Counted from the first letter of the stretch, positions 36,457 to 53,335 are shown. The stretch: DNA of 64,000 bases from an uncultured delta proteobacterium (GCA_963816145.1 CAWFJP010000015.1:96001-160000); one strand, 5' to 3'. Translations and numbers: made by a program. Notes: generated from the letters alone by a model not told the origin.

Positions 36457-37431
36457 TTATTTGAGTTTATCGAAAAATTTCTCTTTCTCTAGTTCCTGCA
36501 ACAGGCTTAGATCGATGAACTGTTCCGGTTTGGCATGGGCAGCCTGGGGCATGCTCTTGTACTCCTCGAGCACGGCCCGCGCTTCGTCCAGCGTCGGATA
36601 GGGCCGCTGTTGAAAAAATTTCACCGCATAGCGGTACCCGTCTTCAAGGATATCGGGATCGTTGATGCGCATATATTTTTTCAAAACATTGATGGCCAGG
36701 TTTTTTTGTGTGCGAATGGCATGGATGCCTTCGATTTCGCCGCGGACGAAATTGAGCGCCGTCGGCCGGCTGCGCTGGATGAAACTTCTCGTCGATGCGA
36801 TGGTCACCGCCGGATATTTGTAATCGAGGCTTTCGAAATCGGACAGTTCTCTGAAGCCGGCCTTTTTCGCCACCGTCAACGCCGGCGGCGAGATCGACCC
36901 GCCCGAAATTGCGCCCGCCTTCATCGCCGTCACCAGTTCGGGGATACCGCCGATTTGCACGATGGTGACATCCTTCGCCGGGTCGAGGCCGAGCTTGCGG
37001 AGATAGCGCCGAATGACTAGATCGCTGAGCGCGCCGAAGCGGCTCACGCCGAGCCGCTTGCCGCGCAGATCGTCGGCGGTTTTGATATCCGGCGTCACGA
37101 CCAAACTTTGCGGGATCAGCGGCACCAGAGTCAGGACGTTGACCGTGTCCGCGCCTTGCAAGCCCGCTTGGATCGTGCCGTTGCCGCCGAGCTGGATCAT
37201 CGGCGCTTCGCCGGCGATCAACGCCGACGTGATCGTCGAGGCGCTGCGGATCAACACCAGATCGACATCGAGGCCGTACTTTTTATACAAACCGCCATCG
37301 AGAGCGATCCATGTCGCCAACGACCAAGAACTCTCGGCGGAATAGGCGGCGCGCAGTTTAGTCAACTGCGCCTGTCCATCGGAGCTCGTCGCGAGCAACG
37401 ACAGCAAAGCCAATAGGGAAATGGTTCGCAT
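36457..37431 (-). CDS. ABC substrate-binding protein, NMT1/SsuA-like
   Basis: KKYGLDV, LRGKRLGVSRFG. Confidence 0.88.
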   Translation of the reverse strand: MRTISLLALLSLLATSSDGQAQLTKLRAAYSAESSWSLATWIALDGGLYKKYGLDVDLVLIRSASTITSALIAGEAPMIQLGGNGTIQAGLQGADTVNVLTLVPLIPQSLVVTPDIKTADDLRGKRLGVSRFGALSDLVIRRYLRKLGLDPAKDVTIVQIGGIPELVTAMKAGAISGGSISPPALTVAKKAGFRELSDFESLDYKYPAVTIASTRSFIQRSRPTALNFVRGEIEGIHAIRTQKNLAINVLKKYMRINDPDILEDGYRYAVKFFQQRPYPTLDEARAVLEEYKSMPQAAHAKPEQFIDLSLLQELEKEKFFDKLK

Positions 37432-37566
37432 TGCCAAATTTCCTCCCGGTTAATTCTGCGCCAAGCAAATCGCTTTACGGCGGTTTTCCATCGGTGCGCG
37501 GCTACCGTTACGTTACCGTTGACCGCACCGCAAGGCAGCCAAATATCAACTATCGTTTCATGGCCG

Positions 37567-38852: not shown

Positions 38853-39848
38853 CTAATTCTTAAACTTGTCGATAAAGCCGCTCTTCTTGATTTCGTCGAG
38901 CACGCTGGAATCCAATAGGCGCAGGCTATCGGGGGTCTGGCCTTTGGCTTTGGGGTTCGTCGGCACCAACTGGGACAAGATGAATTCCAAACCTTTGCGG
39001 TCGGGCATGACCATCACGCCGGCGCCATGTTTCGCCAAATAGTAATCGTAGCTGATGTTGGCGTCCTCGCCGTCGACACGAATATATTTCTTGATTAGTT
39101 GCAGGCCAAGGGCTTTATCGTTTTTCACCATGAAATAGCCTTCAATAATCGCCTTCATGGCGTTGACGATCTTGTTTCGATTTGCCGCGAGGTAACCGCG
39201 CCGGACGATAAAGCAGTTTTGCGGGAACGGCACGCCGCTTTCCGCCAAATCGATCAACGAATTCATCTTATGGTCGCGAATGCCCATCGTGGTCAGCGGC
39301 TCCGCCAATAATGTCCCGTGGATGGTCCCATTCATCAGTGCAGCGAAACGGGTTAAATTTCCGCCAACCTGAACGATCGTAACGTCTTTCGGATTGAGGC
39401 CGATCTTTTCCAATGCGACTTGGGTCGCGTAATCCGACGCAGAGCCGAAGCGGCTGATCGCAACGCGTTTTCCCTTCAAATCCTCGGCTCGCTTGACTTC
39501 GGGCCGAACAAGCAATTTATTGGGAATGAAGTTGATACCGCCCGCGATGATCGTCGTGTCGGCGCCCTGAAGATTCGCCGTAATCGCCAGCGCCCCGGTG
39601 GTGAAAACAATCTGTAGCTCATTCGCCAGCATGGCCTGCATCGCCGGCGTGCCGCTCTCCAGGGCCAGATACTCGCCATCGAGCCCGTACTTTTGAAAGA
39701 TTCTCTTCTCGTACGCCGCCCACGCCACGGCATGAATCGCCGTTGAGAAGCCGCCGCTAGCGACGCGGAATTTCTCCTGCGCCGCAACCGGCGCGAAACG
39801 CCCTACGAACAAAAATGCCGTCACGATTAGAACGTCGAGCAATCTCAC
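38853..39848 (-). CDS. ABC substrate-binding protein, NMT1/SsuA-like
   Basis: QKYGLD, LKGKRVAISRFG. Confidence 0.88.
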   Translation of the reverse strand: MRLLDVLIVTAFLFVGRFAPVAAQEKFRVASGGFSTAIHAVAWAAYEKRIFQKYGLDGEYLALESGTPAMQAMLANELQIVFTTGALAITANLQGADTTIIAGGINFIPNKLLVRPEVKRAEDLKGKRVAISRFGSASDYATQVALEKIGLNPKDVTIVQVGGNLTRFAALMNGTIHGTLLAEPLTTMGIRDHKMNSLIDLAESGVPFPQNCFIVRRGYLAANRNKIVNAMKAIIEGYFMVKNDKALGLQLIKKYIRVDGEDANISYDYYLAKHGAGVMVMPDRKGLEFILSQLVPTNPKAKGQTPDSLRLLDSSVLDEIKKSGFIDKFKN

Positions 39849-40182
39849 AATACCTCCCCCTTCGAGCGCTAGTAGCATTATTGATGCTGCCTAAAAAAAG
39901 TGGTCGCCGCTGAAAACCAACATCGGCGCCGATCATACTCCTCACCTAGGAATCCGGTAAAGACACTCGGCGAAGTTATTTTGACCGCAATCGGAGCTGT
40001 GAGATTCTAATGCCGATTATTGGGATGGCCGCGAGGAAAAAATACAATCGTAGAATAACTACCCCGCTGCACGCCGGGGGCAGCGACAAAACTCTGATTC
40101 TCTTATCCGAGATATCCCATAGGCGTGAAGACGGTCCCGTCCTGCCACGCCAAGAATAGTGCCGGCATAGTTGGTCGCTCGA

Positions 40183-43100
40183 CTACTTGGTTTCTTTTTC
40201 AACGAGGTGCAACGCTTGCTCGTCGGAGAGCGATTCTACCGCTGCCAATGCATCGGACAAGTCCGCCTCATCATAATTTGTCAATTCTTGACTGCTGATC
40301 ATTTCTGCCATATGGGCGACGGTGGGTAATTCAAAGAACTCGCGAAAGGGAATTTCGATTTTAAATACTTCGTTTGCGCGAGAGATTATGCTCATGGCGT
40401 GTAAGGACTGTCCGCCCACATCAAAAAAGTTTTGGTCGATTCCCAGACTGTCTATGCCTAACACATCGATCCAGATTTTCACCAGCTTGTTTTCAACAGG
40501 CGTGCGCCCTTCGGCGATCGGTGCGTCCGCGTTAGGCGCCTCAATGTTCGGCTCCGGAAGTGCTTGCCGATCCACCTTGCCGCTCGGCGTGCGAGGCAGA
40601 ACCTCCAAGCGCACGAAGGCCGAGGGCACCATATAGCTAGGCAACCGAGCTGCCAAAAAATTCCGCAGCATACTGCTGCTGGGCGGTGGCGCATCGGTGC
40701 AAACGTAATAGGCCACCAGGCGCTTGCCCTCCAGGTGATCGGACCGAGCCGCGACCACAGCCGTCGCAATAGCCGAATGCCCGAGCAACATCCTTTCAAC
40801 TTCACCTACCTCGACGCGGTAGCCGCGGATCTTGACCTGAAAGTCTTTGCGCCCTAGATGCAGTAAGCATCCATCCGGCAGAATTCGTCCCATATCTCCG
40901 GTACGATATACCCTTGTCTCCGGTTCCACGGGGTCTGACGAAAACACTGCCGCGGTCAAATCCTGCCGGCGCCAATACCCCGGGGACAGGTAATGGCTCT
41001 TGACCGCGATCTCGCCGATCTGATCGTTTTCCAGCTCGTTACCCGTCTCGTCGAGCAAGAGCACCGTGGTGTCCTCTACGGCGTAGCCCACCGGCACCGA
41101 TCCGCTCGGAGTAGCGGTCTGTTTGTCCACGAAATACCAGCGGATATTACCTGTTTCAGTCGTGCCGAAGCGGTTCACCAGAACACAACCTGGAGAAAAA
41201 TGCTGCTTATACAGATCGACATCCCGCGACGAAAGGGGTTCGCTGCCGAGCACAAGCAAACGGAGCTTGGGAAACAAGTCGCCCTTATCGAGAGTATTGG
41301 CAAAGTGACGAAATGCTGTCGGCACCCAATGTAATAATGTTATCCCTGCGTCGCGAAGCAAGCGAGCAAAACGGCCAAAACCCTCCTCCGCGACTGAAAT
41401 GGGAAATAACGCGGCGCCATTGAGCAATGCGCCGAAGATATCTAGGCGAGAGGCACTAAAACCATGTGAATGAAGCTGCGTAACGCGGTCCTCTCGTGCA
41501 AGCTGAAGACCATTGGTATAGGTCATAATTTGATGGAGGACGTTGCGGTGGTTTTGTACGACGCCTTTGGGGCGACCGGTGGAGCCTGAGGTATAAAAGA
41601 GATAGGCCAATGAGTCCGGAGAAATTGTTGGACTCAGGTTGTCGGTTGGTATGCCGCCGTCAAGCCGATCGATATTTAGAATCATGCTGGGCTCGCGCAC
41701 AAATGCCATCGTCGACGACAGATCGGCGCCATTAGTAACGATCAGAGAGGCCTGAGACTCCTCCAGGATGCTGACCAGCGTGGCATCAGGATAGGTAGGG
41801 TCGAGCGGAACATAACACTTCCCCGCTTTTAGAATACCGAGGATCGATGTCACGGCAGGAATGCCTTGCCTTAGTAGCAATGCCACCGGCTCTGGTTTAC
41901 TACCGAGTCGGTCGATGATAGCCCGCGCGAGCTGATTGGCCACGCGGTTAAGTTCCCCATAGCTTAACAAGAGATCTCCGCTCTTTAGCGCCAATTGATC
42001 GGCATACTTTTCGACTTGCTGCTCGAAGCGAGCCGGAATCGATTGTTCGATGTCCGCCCGGGTGAACGGTACAAAGGAAGGGGCTGGTTTGACGCGCACC
42101 CGCCGTGGCGCAATCTCCGCAACATCCCTGTCGATGATTCGGTGGGTTCGTTTCGCTTGTCGCCCCTCGAACTTTACTAAACGGAGCTTGCCGGTCTTCG
42201 GGTCATTCTCAATGGCGCGTACGTTTCGGACGTCGACAGTCGTCCTCGCGCCACCCTTTGCGTCAAGCATTTTCTGAAACTCTTCTCGGACGGCGGTGTC
42301 GATGTTCCGCGGCGCGACATAGTCGATGCGTACATGTCCGGGACCCTCCGAAACAAACTGGAGCTTATCGATTGTAGGTACGAAGAGTGTTGTCAGCACG
42401 AGGGGGTGAATGCTGTCGTGCACGCCACTCGATAGCACAATGGGTAACGCATCGTTCACTCTACCTCTGATATCGCGAAGCGTTGAAAAGGGCCGATCGG
42501 GGAGTGGTGTCCCTTTAACGACATAGTCGCCAAGCTCATACCGCAGCATTGGCAACGTGTAGTTGTAAAGATTCGTAAGGACAACCCGACCTTCTTTGCC
42601 ATCACTTACGCCTTGATCTTTGTCATCGAGCACCTCGACGATGTTCAGATCATCCATGACCATCATCTGATCGCATTCAGGCGTTTTTATCGCAATGTAT
42701 TTCGACTCCGACGCGGCATAGAGCACATAAATGGGCGCACGCCACGCCTCGCGAATATTTCTTTCCATGCTTTGGGTCAGTTTATCCCCGTAGACAATTA
42801 CTCTCTGCGGGTAAATTCGAAGGCTTCCCTTAAGCGCGAGTTCCGCCAACTGGGCTACGCTGCTGGAATAGCCGCTGAGCCGATGCGGTTGAAAATCATT
42901 TAATTGATTGACCGTCTGTTCCGATGAGCGCAGCAGTGACAGTATCAAAGTGTCGTAGATATTCTTCGGCATGGAATTGACCATGGTCGCAGACGCGAAA
43001 TGGCCAGTCCCTACAATATAAAAAGCAACCTTCGTCTTGCCCTTCGGATAATTTTCAGGCGACGGCAGACGTCCTGCTACAGTTGCGTCCGCTATGGTCC

Positions 43101-43488
43101 AGGCGCCTCGATCGTAAGGAAAAATACCAATATCGCCGGAAGTGCCGGAACCGTGAATTACGACTATGTCCTTGGAGAAAGTCTCGCCCGGATCACGATG
43201 GCCCTCAAACCAAGCTTCCAGTTCTTTTTTCCTGAGTCTCGGATCGGTCACTGCCTTATCAAAATTATCAATCAAGGTTTTTTTTGGCAGTAAAGGTAGA
43301 TCGCTTATCGAAACGTCGGCAAAATCTTTTTCGCGGATACCATGGCTCGAATAATAATCCCGATAAAATGCCGATCGGCTCCAAACATAATCGAGCAATC
43401 TTTTAAGCTGCCGGTTTTGATATTGAAGCATCGCTTGGCGTGACCCAGGGGTAGAGCCATCCCCTTTGGAGTGCACAGCTGTAGTCAT
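40183..43488 (-). CDS. NRPS-like hybrid: PaaK-like adenylate-forming domain + A domain + PCP
   Basis: HGSGTSG, YAASE, RYELGD, KTGK; YTSGSTGRPKG, YRTGD, KIRGYRVE, PSGKVDR; FFDVGGQSL. Confidence 0.9.
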   Translation of the reverse strand: MTTAVHSKGDGSTPGSRQAMLQYQNRQLKRLLDYVWSRSAFYRDYYSSHGIREKDFADVSISDLPLLPKKTLIDNFDKAVTDPRLRKKELEAWFEGHRDPGETFSKDIVVIHGSGTSGDIGIFPYDRGAWTIADATVAGRLPSPENYPKGKTKVAFYIVGTGHFASATMVNSMPKNIYDTLILSLLRSSEQTVNQLNDFQPHRLSGYSSSVAQLAELALKGSLRIYPQRVIVYGDKLTQSMERNIREAWRAPIYVLYAASESKYIAIKTPECDQMMVMDDLNIVEVLDDKDQGVSDGKEGRVVLTNLYNYTLPMLRYELGDYVVKGTPLPDRPFSTLRDIRGRVNDALPIVLSSGVHDSIHPLVLTTLFVPTIDKLQFVSEGPGHVRIDYVAPRNIDTAVREEFQKMLDAKGGARTTVDVRNVRAIENDPKTGKLRLVKFEGRQAKRTHRIIDRDVAEIAPRRVRVKPAPSFVPFTRADIEQSIPARFEQQVEKYADQLALKSGDLLLSYGELNRVANQLARAIIDRLGSKPEPVALLLRQGIPAVTSILGILKAGKCYVPLDPTYPDATLVSILEESQASLIVTNGADLSSTMAFVREPSMILNIDRLDGGIPTDNLSPTISPDSLAYLFYTSGSTGRPKGVVQNHRNVLHQIMTYTNGLQLAREDRVTQLHSHGFSASRLDIFGALLNGAALFPISVAEEGFGRFARLLRDAGITLLHWVPTAFRHFANTLDKGDLFPKLRLLVLGSEPLSSRDVDLYKQHFSPGCVLVNRFGTTETGNIRWYFVDKQTATPSGSVPVGYAVEDTTVLLLDETGNELENDQIGEIAVKSHYLSPGYWRRQDLTAAVFSSDPVEPETRVYRTGDMGRILPDGCLLHLGRKDFQVKIRGYRVEVGEVERMLLGHSAIATAVVAARSDHLEGKRLVAYYVCTDAPPPSSSMLRNFLAARLPSYMVPSAFVRLEVLPRTPSGKVDRQALPEPNIEAPNADAPIAEGRTPVENKLVKIWIDVLGIDSLGIDQNFFDVGGQSLHAMSIISRANEVFKIEIPFREFFELPTVAHMAEMISSQELTNYDEADLSDALAAVESLSDEQALHLVEKETK

Positions 43489-43774
43489 AAATTGCGCTCC
43501 TTTCTGTTTTGAAGGCTAGGAGTTTGTCAAGCATTAACTTCACTTCAAAGACCTTAAGACACGAAGCAATGAATCTCAATTGGGGTATGGAATTTGTCGA
43601 GGAATTTCTGGAGGGGTCATCGCCAAAGATTTTAGCAATTTGGGGTGGCAGGTTTTTTTGAACCTCGGTGACAACAGATGTCATGGTTTTCGACGACGGT
43701 TTACACGCCAAGACGGAAGGGGTATACGAACGACTTGTGACAATATTGGAGAAATTACGTAAGGAGCCGCGCAG

Positions 43775-44872
43775 ATGATTTTTCTCACCAACGAACAGAT
43801 CGAACAGGTCCTCGACATGAAAACCTGCATCGACGCCATGGAAGACGCCTACCGCGAACTGAATGAGCTCAAAGCCGGCTACCGCCCGCGCATCGACTTC
43901 TACGTGCCACAAGAACCGCACTACTATCGTTGGGGCACCATGGAGGGCGCGTCGCGCAAGTTAGGCGTCTTCGCCATCCGCATGAAGTCCGACATGCTCG
44001 CCTGGGAAAATCAGGACGGCTTCATGGTCGAGGACAAGTATTGCATGGAGCGCGGCACCTACTGCGGCCTGATCTTCCTGACCAGCACGCGCAACGGCGA
44101 GCCGCTGGCGATCATGAACGATGGCTACCTCCAGCATATGCGCGTCGGCGCCTGCGCCGGTCTCGGCACCAAGTATCTGGCGCGCAAAGATGCCAAGGTC
44201 ATGGCGATGATCGGCTCCGGCGGCATGGCGCGGACCTACGCCGAGGCGATCAAACATGTCCGACCCCTCGAAGTCATGCGCGTGTTCAGCCCGACGAAAA
44301 AGAACCGCGAAGCCTTTGCCGCCGAGATGACCGATAAACTCGACATCGAAGTGATCGCCGTCGACTCGCCGGAAAAGGCGCTCAAGGGCGCCGCGATTGT
44401 TTCGCTGACCACCGACTCGCTCGTACCCGTGATCAAAGCCGAATGGCTCGAACCGGGAATGCATATCAACAACGTGCGCAACAACGAAGCCGGTCCCGAC
44501 GTCCTGGCCCGCGCCGACGTGCGCGCGCGTCTCGGCACTTCCACGCTCTACGCCGATCGCAATTCACCAGAAGTCGTCACCGGTAGCGACGGCATGTTCG
44601 GCTTCATCGCCGGTAGCCCGGAGGAAAAGCAAAAGATCCCATCCTCACCGCACCATGAGATCGACAACCCGAATATCGGCACCGTCCCCGACGTCATGGC
44701 TGGTAGATGGATCGGCCGGGCCAATGACCAACAGATCACCTTCCTGAACAATCAAGGCACCCAAGGCCTGCAATTTGCCGCCGTCGGCGGTACGGCGTAT
44801 AACTTGGCCAAAGCCAAAGGATTAGGCCATGCATTGCCTTTAGAATGGTTCACGCAGAATATAAGAGATTGA
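43775..44872 (+). CDS. Ornithine cyclodeaminase/mu-crystallin family protein
   Basis: MRVGA, IGSGGMA, LEPGMHI. Confidence 0.88.
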   Translation: MIFLTNEQIEQVLDMKTCIDAMEDAYRELNELKAGYRPRIDFYVPQEPHYYRWGTMEGASRKLGVFAIRMKSDMLAWENQDGFMVEDKYCMERGTYCGLIFLTSTRNGEPLAIMNDGYLQHMRVGACAGLGTKYLARKDAKVMAMIGSGGMARTYAEAIKHVRPLEVMRVFSPTKKNREAFAAEMTDKLDIEVIAVDSPEKALKGAAIVSLTTDSLVPVIKAEWLEPGMHINNVRNNEAGPDVLARADVRARLGTSTLYADRNSPEVVTGSDGMFGFIAGSPEEKQKIPSSPHHEIDNPNIGTVPDVMAGRWIGRANDQQITFLNNQGTQGLQFAAVGGTAYNLAKAKGLGHALPLEWFTQNIRD

Positions 44873-45922: not shown

Positions 45923-46939
45923 ATGCTGAAATTAAAATTTACAGTTTCGATCGTTTCAATCATTGCACTGTTAATCACGGCATCGCCACGCACGGCACTA
46001 ACGGCCTCGGCGCCGTTGGAAAAACTGACGCTCGGCTGGAGCGCCATCGCCGGCTCGCAGGCGCCGTTCTGGATCACCAAGGAAGCCGGCCTGTTCGAGA
46101 AAAACGGCCTCGACGTGATCATGATCTACCTCGACGGCGGTTCACGGGCTACTCAAGCGATGATGTCGGGCGATCTACCGATCGCTCAGGTCGGCGGCAA
46201 TGCTCCGGTGGTTGCCAAACTGCGCGGTGCCGATATCACACTGATCGCGGGCTTACTTAATATCCTCGCCTACAGCATGGTGGTTTCACCAGAAATCAAA
46301 AAGCCGGAAGACCTGCGGGGCAAAAAGCTCACGGTCAGCCGCTTCGGCTCCAACTCCGACTACGCCACGCGCAAAATATTATTGAAATGGGGATTGAAGC
46401 CCGACGTCGACGTGGCGGTCCTGCAGATACCAGGCGGTCAACCGACTCGCCTGGCGGCGATACAAACAAATCAAGTGCAAGGCATGGTGGCACAGCCGCC
46501 GGTGACCAATCTGGCGCGCAAGTTCAAAATGAATATCATCGCCGAGCCCGAAGACTTCGGCGGCGCCTACCCGACCACACCGGTGGCGGCGCGGATTTCC
46601 TTCATCAAGGATAAACGCGACACCGTGCGAAAATTTACCCGCGCGCTGTTGGAAGGCATTCACCTCTATAAAACCAACAAGGAGTTCAGCAAGAAAGTCA
46701 TCGGCAAATACGTCAAGACCGACGACAACGATGCATTGGAAGACAGCTATCAATTTTTCTCCCGGCTCGTGCCGGCCAAGCCCTATCCGTCCCTCGAAGC
46801 GGTCAAAGAAGCCCTTGCCGAACTCGGTGAAAAAGATCCCAAGGTCCGCGCGGCGAAACCGGAGGACTTCGTCGACATGAGTATCATCAAGGAGTTCGAC
46901 GACAACGGATTTATCGACGGGCTGTATAAGAAACGCTAA
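45923..46939 (+). CDS. ABC substrate-binding protein, NMT1/SsuA-like
   Basis: GLFEKNGLDV, LRGKKLTVSRFG. Confidence 0.88.
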   Translation: MLKLKFTVSIVSIIALLITASPRTALTASAPLEKLTLGWSAIAGSQAPFWITKEAGLFEKNGLDVIMIYLDGGSRATQAMMSGDLPIAQVGGNAPVVAKLRGADITLIAGLLNILAYSMVVSPEIKKPEDLRGKKLTVSRFGSNSDYATRKILLKWGLKPDVDVAVLQIPGGQPTRLAAIQTNQVQGMVAQPPVTNLARKFKMNIIAEPEDFGGAYPTTPVAARISFIKDKRDTVRKFTRALLEGIHLYKTNKEFSKKVIGKYVKTDDNDALEDSYQFFSRLVPAKPYPSLEAVKEALAELGEKDPKVRAAKPEDFVDMSIIKEFDDNGFIDGLYKKR

Positions 46940-47020
46940 CGGACGAACATCGAACTGCACCGGGACGAAAGTTCATTTTGTGAATCATTTCCATTAGTGG
47001 GCTTTTTACAGGAGCGATTT

Positions 47021-48010
47021 ATGAACAGACAATTTAATCGGTTTATGTTCGCGCTCGTGCTCCCGTTACTTTCCTTGAGTCATTTCGCTACAGCAGCCAC
47101 GATCACCGTAAAGGTCGGTTACCCTCAACTAAGCGGCGGCTCCATGCCGCTCTGGGTGATCAACGACAGCAAGCTCGATCAGCGCTACGGCGTCGATGTC
47201 AAAACCGTCTACATCGCGGGTGGCGCCACTCTCACCCATTCTTTAGTCGCCGGCGACATCGATATCGCATTGACCGGCGGGGCCGTGGTTGGCGCCGTGC
47301 TTAGCGGCGCCGATCTCGTTTACGTCGGCATCGGGCTTTCGACTTATGGCTTTACCGTATACGCCAAGCCGGAGACCAAAAGCATCGAAGATCTGCGCGG
47401 CAAGATTTTTGGCGTGATCACCCGCGGCGCTTCCTCCGACCACGCAGCGATCGCGCTTTTCAACCGATACAACATGAAGGTCGGCCAAGATGTGAAATTT
47501 CTTTACTTCTCGCGGCAAGGTGATCTTCTCGCGGCACTGGACAAGGGCGTGGTGGTGGGTGGAGTGTTTTCATCGCCTACGACCGTGATGGCCAAACGCA
47601 TGGGCTACAAAGAGCTCGTCAATATCGCCTCTTTCAAGCTGCCCTATCCGCACAACGCCATCGCAGCTCGCAAGACCTTAGTCCGGCAAAATCCGGAGCT
47701 GATTAAGGGCTTTCTGAAGTCCTACCTGGCGGCGATAAAAATCATTCATGAGGAGCCGGCGATCGCAAAGCGCGCCCTGTCCCGCTATCTCGGCACCAAA
47801 GATCCTGAGATGATCGATGACTCCTACACCAGCCTTGCGCCGCTGTTCTTGAAGGTCCCGTACATGCCCGAGGAAGCGATTCGCACCGTCCTTTCCCTCT
47901 CGGACCATCCAAAGGCGTCGCAGGCGGATCCCAAAGATTTCTTCGACAATCGTCCACTGAAAGAGCTGGAGGATAGCGGCTTCGTCAAGGAACTGTATGG
48001 TCAGCGCTAG
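47021..48010 (+). CDS. ABC substrate-binding protein, NMT1/SsuA-like
   Basis: DLRGKIFGV, LEDSGFV. Confidence 0.88.
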   Translation: MNRQFNRFMFALVLPLLSLSHFATAATITVKVGYPQLSGGSMPLWVINDSKLDQRYGVDVKTVYIAGGATLTHSLVAGDIDIALTGGAVVGAVLSGADLVYVGIGLSTYGFTVYAKPETKSIEDLRGKIFGVITRGASSDHAAIALFNRYNMKVGQDVKFLYFSRQGDLLAALDKGVVVGGVFSSPTTVMAKRMGYKELVNIASFKLPYPHNAIAARKTLVRQNPELIKGFLKSYLAAIKIIHEEPAIAKRALSRYLGTKDPEMIDDSYTSLAPLFLKVPYMPEEAIRTVLSLSDHPKASQADPKDFFDNRPLKELEDSGFVKELYGQR

Positions 48011-52300: not shown

Positions 52301-52329
52301 TTGACAGCAGCACGGTCGACTCTTATGAT
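52301..52329 (+). promoter_or_regulatory. Near-consensus sigma70 promoter, probably leaderless transcript
   Basis: TTGACA-N17-TATGAT, 7 nt before ATG 52337; divergent TTGACA-N17-TAAGTG at 52283-52255. Confidence 0.65.
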
Positions 52330-52336
52330 CGCGACA

Positions 52337-53335
52337 ATGCACCGAAAATACTTAATTTTCTTCCTAGTACTCGCAGCGGCCCCGCTGGTGATCACGGCGC
52401 GGCTGTGGAGCAAAGATATAAACATCGCCTACTCGACTATCGGCGCCAACAACACGGTCGTCTGGGTCGCCCGCGACATGGGCCTTTTCAAAAAGCACGG
52501 CCTCGACGCCCAAGTGCTCTACGTCCAGGGCGGCGGTATCCTGATTCAGGGCATGCTCAACGGCAACATTCCGATTTCGATCACCAGCGGCTCCCAGGCG
52601 ATCGTCAGCAACCTGGCCGGGACCGACTTGGTATTGTTCTCGACGTTTCACTCCGCTGCCGGACCGCGCTATCTCGGCGTTGCCAAGGACATTCAGAATG
52701 CGGCCCAGCTCAAAGGCAAGAAGCTGGCGGTTTCCCGCTTCGGCAGTTCATCGGACTTTATTTTGCGTTTCGCCTTGCGCAAAGCCGGGCTCGATCCGGA
52801 GAAAGACGTTGCGATATTGCAAATCGGCAACTCACCGGACCGGCTGGCGGCCATGCGCAACGGGCAAATTTCCGGCACCATGCTCACGGTGGAAGATCGC
52901 TGGGCGGCCGAAAAGTTTGGCTTCCGCACGCTGCTCGATGTCTATGACTACGGCTTCGAAGCCCTGACCGTGTCTGCGATCGCGAGCAAGAAGTACCTAA
53001 CCGAGCAGCGAGACATGGCGCGGGCATTCATGCGCGGGCTGGTGGAAGCGATTCATTTCACCAAAACGCGTCCCGAAGAAACCAAGAAGATCATGGCGAA
53101 GAACACCCGTATCTCGGACCCCGGAATTCTCGATCAGGCCTATAAATTCATCGCCGCCGACTATCTGCAAAAGCCCTATCCGTCGATCAAAGGCATCCAG
53201 TTCACCTTGCAAGATCTCGATCGCACCCGGCCCGGCACCGCGGAATTGAACCCGCTGCGATTTGCCGATATGGAATTGGTAAAAGAGCTGGAGACCAATG
53301 GATTCATCGACCGGATCTTCGGCAAGAAATCCTGA
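52337..53335 (+). CDS. ABC substrate-binding protein, NMT1/SsuA-like
   Basis: GLFKKHGLD, LKGKKLAVSRFG. Confidence 0.88.
   Translation: MHRKYLIFFLVLAAAPLVITARLWSKDINIAYSTIGANNTVVWVARDMGLFKKHGLDAQVLYVQGGGILIQGMLNGNIPISITSGSQAIVSNLAGTDLVLFSTFHSAAGPRYLGVAKDIQNAAQLKGKKLAVSRFGSSSDFILRFALRKAGLDPEKDVAILQIGNSPDRLAAMRNGQISGTMLTVEDRWAAEKFGFRTLLDVYDYGFEALTVSAIASKKYLTEQRDMARAFMRGLVEAIHFTKTRPEETKKIMAKNTRISDPGILDQAYKFIAADYLQKPYPSIKGIQFTLQDLDRTRPGTAELNPLRFADMELVKELETNGFIDRIFGKKS

Follow-up and report, generated by a model that had tools for sequence, protein, structure and literature searches.

What would a protein resembling a nonribosomal peptide synthetase (NRPS) make if it carries two adenylate-forming domains, a single carrier and no domain that would condense or release their products? 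This question is raised by one gene within a 64,000-nt stretch of DNA from an uncultured delta proteobacterium (GCA_963816145.1 CAWFJP010000015.1:96001-160000), the whole of which is referred to here as the window; the genome itself is labelled G000. The gene encodes an N-terminal PaaK/CapK-like ligase domain (hereafter X), a linker, an adenylation (A) domain, a peptidyl carrier protein (PCP), and an acidic tail (Table 1). The explanation that we favour, and to which we give roughly an even chance, is a self-contained starter module in which two ATP-dependent acid-activating domains serve one carrier and X joins a second acid into the starter unit.

Domain content was determined by profile searches of the predicted protein. 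A Pfam scan of the open reading frame (ORF; E ≤ 0.01) returned matches to the A domain and PCP alone (AMP-binding at residues 488-839, AMP-binding_C at 896-971, and PP-binding at 1001-1064), with no condensation (C), thioesterase (TE), or reductase (R) domain. The A domain scored 343.3 bits with TIGR01733 (cut-off 317.4) and retained the A10 lysine, as is expected of an NRPS adenylation domain, and the PCP scored 56.1 bits with PF00550 (cut-off 20.8) and had its serine within GGxS, as in carrier proteins generally. This serine, Ser1028, was S in 99/99 aligned homologues. A complete elongation or termination module was not found, given that PF00668, PF00975, and a reductase were absent from the protein, from 21 neighbouring ORFs, and from the contig, and the 32 C-domain matches in the genome were all located on other contigs. 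The 21 flanking ORFs (28167-55561) encoded solute-binding proteins, amidohydrolases, an OCD/mu-crystallin protein, a glyoxalase, a hydrolase, and short-chain dehydrogenases/reductases, and included no NRPS or polyketide synthase (PKS) gene. An earlier reading, made from the sequence alone, had described a single ORF with two different adenylating domains, one carrier, and an acidic tail, in which C, TE, and R domains were missing and which lacked biosynthetic neighbours. This sequence-only reading agreed with the Pfam, TIGR01733, Protein Data Bank (PDB), and predicted-fold results: the last 37 residues (1065-1101) contained 10 D/E and 2 K/R, the PCP serine codon that it had placed at 40405-40407 was Ser1028 in GGQS (TCC on the minus strand), and the ligase that it had placed at approximately residues 1-440 was located at approximately 16-445 by fold and PDB sequence matches.

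X (residues 1-470) had no Pfam match. When compared to NCBIfam, it matched an F390-synthetase-related model best (4.5e-20), followed by the DVU_1553-family ligase, FlxY, PaaK (to ~1e-12), BagE/FevW, and DdaG models, all far under their cut-offs (72 vs 251.9 bits for F390-related TIGR02304, 45.7 vs 646.3 for PaaK TIGR02155, 53 vs 700 for NF041878, and 18.2 vs 700 with an E value of 9.8e-4 for DdaG model NF041596). None of 16 stand-alone X relatives that were scanned reached any NCBIfam cut-off. The protein atlas clusters nearest X were named 'Coenzyme F390 synthetase family', and in two of the four clusters listed there, CapK_C was carried by 11-14% of the members. By these profile comparisons the architecture of the target matches no curated family. 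The best PDB sequence matches were AjiA1 (6wuq, 5.6e-8) and an NatL2-type ligase (6siw, 1.6e-7), followed by PaaK-type ligases. An AlphaFold2 model of X built from a 31-sequence alignment (pLDDT 89, pTM 0.86) was then compared to the PDB using Foldseek, which returned PaaK1 (2y27, 8.5e-23), BT_0428, PaaK2, AjiA1, NatL2, HCL (2-hydroxyisobutyryl-CoA ligase), and ClxA. The first six of these matched with a probability of 1.00 over 436-485 columns, so that X has the two-lobed PaaK-type fold along its full length, and classical NRPS A domains ranked below the PaaK-family structures.

Motif conservation was assessed in an alignment of 99 homologues of at least 1000 residues, 93 of which had residues in the X-motif columns while 6 were gapped there. 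The P-loop followed the pattern H-[SGT]-S-G-[ST]-S-G, with H in 80 of the 93, S in 91, G in 92, S/T in 93, S in 86, and G in 93. Residues Y257, E261, G300-R301, T305-N306, R316-Y317, D321, and T432-G433-K434 were nearly invariant (86-93 of the 93 for Y257, E261, R316-Y317, D321, and T432-G433-K434), and together these presumably correspond to the named adenylation motifs of the ANL superfamily, with Lys434 being what we take to be the A10 lysine from its position. The near invariance of the adenylation motifs across 93 homologues makes it very probable that X is active as an adenylate-forming enzyme.

The A-PCP portion was closest in the PDB to LgrA (6mfz, 3.7e-163), and PvdL was also among the matches. 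In this alignment the FSAS of the target falls on FDGS and FDIS of LgrA. At the Asp position, the 99 homologues had S (73), G (8), A (7), I (5), N (2), or M (1), and D was found in 0/99. The A5 motif of the target reads N-R-F-G-T-T-E, and the Pro of NxYGPTE was present in 6/99 homologues. The target therefore has neither the Asp of FDxS nor the A5 Pro that mark an A domain for alpha-amino acids. As a control, ordinary C-A-PCP modules beside three relatives (L019, L020, and L025) were examined and found to have FD[IA][AS] and N[MG]YGPTE. The equivalent of K517, K971, is located in P-S-G-K-V-D-R and was K in 99/99 homologues. A review of A domains (PMC11253843) describes D235 and K517 as binding the alpha-amino acid in A domains, Asp235 as being replaced in A domains for alpha-hydroxy, alpha-keto, and aryl acids, and the A5 Pro as being replaced too in the keto-acid A domain StsA. 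Given that the Asp is absent in 99/99 homologues and the A5 Pro is mostly lost, what the A domain tethers is probably a carboxylic acid that lacks an alpha-amino group.

In order to survey the fused form, residues 1-470 were used in a word-indexed search that returned 113 clusters, nearly all of 1000-1200 residues with A and PCP Pfam domains (14 also had TE, 5 MbtH, and 2 C). The domain orders that were checked included X-A-PCP-TE, X-MbtH-A-PCP(-TE), and X-A-PCP-C..., with an MbtH-like insert in the linker region of some. At two loci (L024 and L082), X and A-PCP were encoded by a split gene pair, and in one N-terminally incomplete protein (P0109) X was followed directly by a C domain. An exhaustive search with X retrieved 11252 proteins at E ≤ 1e-3, and 353 passed the stricter E ≤ 1e-30, many being stand-alone (~440-470 residues); the hosts were mostly uncultured Acidobacteriota, 'delta proteobacterium', Binatia, and Chloroflexota metagenome-assembled genomes (MAGs). 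On a FastTree phylogeny of 213 X domains (92 stand-alone), the fused or stand-alone state changed 6 times, one of these changes being the query fragment itself, versus a mean of ~70 with shuffled labels. Two paralogues with 48% identity in X were located on contigs C31 and C17 of the same genome, and a metagenome contig (L121) carried a 93% identical copy with the same synteny. Among public reads, 20 soil and wetland runs from 18 studies contained half or more of the words sampled from the gene. Contigs from three of the four runs examined covered 28-30 of the 30 bins with no rearrangement, the X-A linker among them, and no single contig spanned the gene. The X-A-PCP fusion is real, old, and widespread, and is no artefact; the sequence-only reading had made its case depend upon homologues and read support for the fusion, and the 113 clusters and the read contigs tiling the linker supply both.

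Some individual sequences from these searches had other arrangements. One protein of 2121 residues (P0116) has a tandem X-X before A-PCP, after which come a hydrolase, another PCP, and finally a TE, and another of 1099 residues (P0121) has the reverse order, A-PCP-X. At window position 43440, one contig from run X6 (depth ~6) lacked one base at approximately codon 17; a downstream Met20 could start this variant.

Gene order in relatives indicates that X-A-PCP is a first module, feeding ordinary C or KS domains or ending in its own TE, because relatives place it before C-A-PCP(-TE) or PKS genes or fuse it to a TE. In the closest intact relatives, both titled Acidobacteriota (L019 with 67% and L020 with 62% identity in X), X-A-PCP adjoins a C-A-PCP-TE gene, with a GNAT gene located between the two in L020, and both share the A-domain motifs FSASRLD and NR[FY]G[ST]TETGN with the target. 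The order in L025 is a phosphoenolpyruvate-mutase-family gene and other genes, X-A-PCP, TubC_N-C-A-PCP, and PKS. The paralogue on C17 (1138 residues; C17:262000-287000, L015 and beyond) follows an AsnB-like gene and precedes a KS-AT-KR-DH-ACP PKS and then C domains (C17:273336, 281477, and 284774). At L016 (G006:C30, a 15.9 kb contig), X-A-PCP is accompanied by three further Asp-less A-PCP proteins, a thiamine pyrophosphate-dependent enzyme, and a GT2 glycosyltransferase, with no C domain within the 15.9 kb. Since X-A-PCP adjoins C-A-PCP(-TE) or PKS genes in relatives, X is an addition to an initiation module and not a general replacement for C domains. An IS21-type transposase pair (a Mu-transposase C-terminal domain protein and IstB) is located just upstream of the C17 cluster.

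The acidic tail carries a recurring motif, [LV]ES[LM]S[DE]E[EQ]A..L[LV]; among 78 homologues without TE, 39 matched a loose pattern for it and 24 a strict one. The sequence-only reading had called the tail COM-like; what the analysis established for it is acidity and a conserved motif. The partner proteins in L019 and L020 start with a basic head, 'L[SP]PxKRxLLE', which suggests an acid-base docking pair. TubC_N was considered as the docking partner and set aside as improbable, given that the sole TubC_N of the genome comes after another NRPS gene on C29 and that L025, where TubC_N heads the next gene, lacks the tail motif. At that C29 site (G000 C29:133722-135243), TubC_N is followed by a C domain split over overlapping frames (309 and 910 residues), for which a frameshift or an assembly error is possible.

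Under the starter-module explanation, the A domain would select a carboxylic acid without an alpha-amino group and tether it to Ser1028, X would activate a second carboxylate as an acyl-AMP, and X would then link this second acid into that starter unit as an amide or ester. Two orders of events can be envisaged. X may ligate two free substrates, after which the A domain would tether the product (as with DdaG then DdaD), or the A domain may tether its acid first, after which X would acylate a nucleophile on the tethered unit or activate its free second carboxylate. The acidic tail would dock the module to its partner, which in relatives would be a C-A-PCP-TE protein, a PKS protein, or a TE fused in cis. 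A more specific form of this proposal, in which X acts in cis as an ATP-driven bond former on the tethered unit, making the amide or ester on the PCP after adenylating either a free acid or, where a di-acid is tethered, its free distal carboxylate, is one that we hold tentatively and regard as doubtful. If it were true, X would represent a second, C-domain-free route of chain building, widespread in uncultured soil phyla and iterated in X-X-A-PCP.

Several characterised systems resemble parts of this arrangement. NRPS initiation modules are known with F, starter C, acyl-ligase, or GNAT domains. LgrA of linear gramicidin (F-A-PCP; PDB 6mfz, 5es5) likewise has a domain fused N-terminally to its first-module A-PCP, but it has the Asp of FDGS and loads valine where the target has FSAS, and its F domain is a formyltransferase and not an ATP-dependent ligase. 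Lipoinitiation and PvdL-type AL-T-C-A-T loading also bring in an ATP-activated second acid at the start of the assembly line, with a PF00501-type ligase that has its own carrier and C domain, whereas the target lacks a C domain, its ligase is of the PaaK type, and it has only one carrier. The highest fold matches of X, PaaK1 and PaaK2 (PDB 2y27, 2y4o; TM-score 0.60-0.66 over ~460 columns), are catabolic CoA ligases, and the PaaK models gave X 45-53 bits against cut-offs of 646-700. NatL2, AjiA1, and ClxA of benzoxazole pathways (PDB 6siw, 6wuq, 9s45) share the fold of X (Foldseek ~1e-20 to 1e-17) and, as is proposed for X, use ATP to link two acids as an ester or amide with no C domain involved; unlike X, they are stand-alone enzymes for aryl acids with ~20% identity to X and are not fused to A-PCP. 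The dapdiamide pair DdaG and DdaD combines a PaaK-type ligase with an A-T protein (DgaG-type chemistry, as shown by DdaG), a likeness in working logic only; the two are separate proteins and the DdaD substrate retains a free alpha-amino group. The dapdiamide pathway has an amidotransferase, DdaH, and the C17 paralogue has its AsnB-like gene directly upstream. According to the relevant reports, NatL2 forms an ester from two acids with no CoA involved (PMC7204872), ClxA is an amide ligase (PMC12519233), and DdaG, a PaaK-family amide bond synthetase, acts first, after which DdaD adenylates and tethers the N-acylated product (PMC12568646, PMC12451424). No description of an initiation module that fuses a PaaK/CapK-type ligase to an A domain for non-amino acids was found in the searchable full-text literature, from which subscription journals are mostly absent.

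Flanking regions were compared across 15 same-genus genomes, in five of which (G006, G007, G008, G014, and G015) both flanks were found on one contig. In the three genomes that had both inner flank pieces, the homology gap between NMT1 and OCD was ~1.5-1.8 kb, versus 4.0 kb in the target. The slot between these genes (window 39879-43774) held an OCD paralogue in G008 (L118:2896-4005) and an M23 peptidase in G006 (L119:2916-4211). Because the slot is shorter or filled by other genes in relatives, flank comparison identifies the target gene as a single-gene insertion in a variable slot. An X match was found in 5/24 same-genus genomes including G005 (4/23 without it), and the G004 copy was located elsewhere in its genome and disrupted, its reading frame being split in two and carrying a TAA stop. 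The dN/dS ratio against the L121 copy was 0.157 for the whole gene (0.131 in X, 0.153 in the A domain; 0.046 for the neighbouring OCD gene), and on the strength of this ratio purifying selection acts on the target gene, which is not in decay. The sequence-only reading had also noted codon usage more AT-rich than the flanks, and the calculated GC content at third codon positions (GC3) bore this out: 0.578, compared to 0.56-0.81 in 21 neighbours, most of which were at ~0.70. Against the genome mean of 0.688 (sd 0.070), this value falls in the lowest 7.8% of 1694 ORFs of at least 400 residues. Low GC3 was rejected as proof of recent transfer, since other NRPS/PKS ORFs of the genome have GC3 of 0.55-0.64. 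The divergent OCD/mu-crystallin gene (43775-44872) was likewise rejected as a biosynthetic partner, as the flanks are syntenic in relatives without the NRPS gene and the OCD gene is absent at L018, L019, and L020.

The same genome encodes five stand-alone A-PCP didomain proteins (623-724 residues) that have the same ESLSDEEA-type tail, are 39-45% identical to the target A-PCP, and lack Asp235. At two of their loci the same three neighbours recur: a molybdopterin hydroxylase (~765 residues), a UbiD-type decarboxylase (~485 residues), and an ORF of 169-182 residues. Because the Asp-less A-PCP-tail unit exists without X, sequence comparison places X as an add-on in a subset of these proteins.

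A number of observations weigh against the starter-module explanation. The loss of Asp is not explained by X, given that the same clade contains stand-alone A-PCP proteins and these, too, are without Asp235. X falls under every curated family cut-off, and its chemistry is therefore not transferable from any characterised enzyme; the X family is known from sequence and predicted structure alone. Because most stand-alone X homologues have no adjoining A-PCP gene, the wider family works on free substrates and may do no more than make CoA thioesters. No C, TE, or PKS partner is encoded near the target copy, which must therefore work with a partner encoded elsewhere, or alone, and the basic 'L[SP]PxKRxLLE' head was not found in its own genome among six ORFs that start with a C domain or in a six-frame scan, a weak search made with one regular expression. 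The A-domain specificity pocket, which we take to be S-A-L-T-L-L-R-N-I-K, depends upon approximate offsets; its Arg, present in 40/99 homologues by the same approximate assignment, hints at an oxygen-rich or acidic substrate and serves as a lead only. Complex predictions of the X domain with the PCP, made without controls, scored 0.10 and 0.24 against a mark of 0.32 and count neither for nor against the explanation.

Other explanations were weighed against the same evidence. The sequence-only reading had proposed that the PaaK-like domain replaces a C domain by ligating a second acid to the tethered substrate, which in its simplest form would have X acylate the amino group of an A-loaded aminoacyl-S-PCP to give an N-acyl amino acid thioester. 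Part of this proposal stands, as the X motifs are intact, X sits N-terminal to A as starter C domains do in other initiation modules and as the F domain does in LgrA (the best A-PCP match in the PDB), and X-A-PCP-TE proteins lack any C domain. Relatives nonetheless retain ordinary C domains in the next module, and since the Asp is absent in 99/99 homologues and the A5 Pro present in just 6/99, the tethered unit probably has no alpha-amino group and simple N-acylation becomes improbable. Acylation by X of another nucleophile (e.g., a hydroxyl) on a tethered non-amino acid is included in the favoured explanation. We consider it also unlikely that X is an ordinary acyl-CoA ligase that supplies acyl-CoA elsewhere, such as to a starter C domain or an acyltransferase, with fusion serving co-expression only. 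This would suit the true CoA ligases among its nearest structures (PaaK1/2, BT_0428, and HCL), the abundance of stand-alone X (92/213 tree domains), and the direct X-C junction in P0109, but X-A-PCP-TE forms have no domain that would use an acyl-CoA and the fusion state is strongly clustered on the X tree.

Alternatively, X and A could load different acids onto the one PCP as alternative starters, with X forming no bond. Fusion does place X near the PCP, and AjiA1, of the PaaK family, loads aryl acids onto a carrier protein; competing loaders without condensing activity, however, would give no reason for a fusion seen in >100 clusters or for the X-X-A-PCP form, X and A are under similar purifying selection, and we judge this quite improbable. 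A comparably small chance is given to a role outside assembly lines, in which a scattered A-PCP-tail family (8 in the genome, 3 with X) would activate acids for nearby catabolic or tailoring enzymes. The five stand-alone proteins without Asp235 lie among transport and catabolic genes, two of them with the shared hydroxylase, decarboxylase, and small ORF described above, and the window copy has no NRPS neighbour, but the closest intact relatives and one paralogue from the same genome are located in clear NRPS/PKS clusters and the solute-binding protein and amidohydrolase neighbours occur at chance level. That the gene is a decaying, functionless orphan of a lost gene cluster is very improbable and was already disfavoured: the missing partner in cis, the patchy distribution, and the broken G004 copy would fit decay, yet the frame is intact, the GGAG site is kept, all catalytic motifs are retained, and dN/dS is low.

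If X does form bonds in cis, then it would offer a compact, ATP-driven alternative to the C domain for capping or extending starter units, which would be useful for engineering. Gene clusters of this type would also have to be read differently, since prediction tools would miscall the A-domain substrate and ignore X. If X is a CoA ligase only, then the protein is an ordinary fusion.

Table 1 Coordinates of the target gene, its parts, and related genes (window positions unless a contig is named)
Feature	Position	Strand	Basis or remark
Whole ORF, X - linker - A - PCP - acidic tail	40183..43488	(-)	1101 aa, ATG start, 1101 intact codons
X domain (aa ~16-445), PaaK/CapK/F390-synthetase-like adenylate-forming ligase	42154..43443	(-)	Weak NCBIfam matches, PDB sequence matches, AlphaFold2 and Foldseek
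X P-loop H112-G-S-G-T-S-G118	43135..43155	(-)	Family columns of alignment
X Lys434 in T-G-K, putative A10 catalytic lysine	42187..42189	(-)	K in 92/93 homologues
Basic linker, aa 446-487, 10 K/R vs 5 D/E	42028..42153	(-)	Composition; pLDDT <50 at aa 452-465
NRPS adenylation domain (aa 488-980)	40549..42027	(-)	PF00501 1.5e-68, PF13193, TIGR01733 above cut-off; LgrA 6mfz best PDB match
A4 motif F677-S-A-S680; Ser678 at alpha-amino Asp position (GrsA D235)	41449..41460	(-)	Alignment to LgrA
PCP (aa 1001-1064), phosphopantetheine Ser1028 at 40405-40407	40297..40488	(-)	PF00550 4.4e-15; GGQS, TCC codon
Acidic tail at the C-terminus (aa 1065-1101) carrying motif VESLSDEQALHLVEK; probably a docking element	40186..40296	(-)	Composition; motif in homologues
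GGAG ribosome-binding site, 8 nt 5' of ATG	43497..43500	(-)	Kept in metagenome contig L121
Terminator-like hairpin (weak), ~105 nt 3' of stop	40062..40079	(-)	Consensus match alone; 6 such sites vs 4.7 expected
Stand-alone A-PCP genes (L122-L125)	C3:76840-78849, C3:259813-261987, C3:262587-264548, C17:106268-108250(-), C30:233918-235789(-)		
NMT1-like genes in the window, examples	36457-37437, 38853-39878, 45923-46939, 46997-48010, 52301-53335		

Several gene families found around the target were hugely expanded in the genome. NMT1/THI5-like solute-binding proteins reached 367 tblastn copies (≥ 60% of query, E ≤ 1e-10), with 113 copies for Amidohydro_2 and 98 for TctC-like receptors. NMT1-type solute-binding proteins and Amidohydro_2 were rejected as functional partners, as they were located within 3 kb of 3/8 and 2/8 A-PCP loci, respectively, versus 29% and 12% of random sites, and because these families are so expanded, their association is at chance level. 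TctC-like genes were found near 3/8 A-PCP loci versus 8% of random sites, which is a marginal difference.

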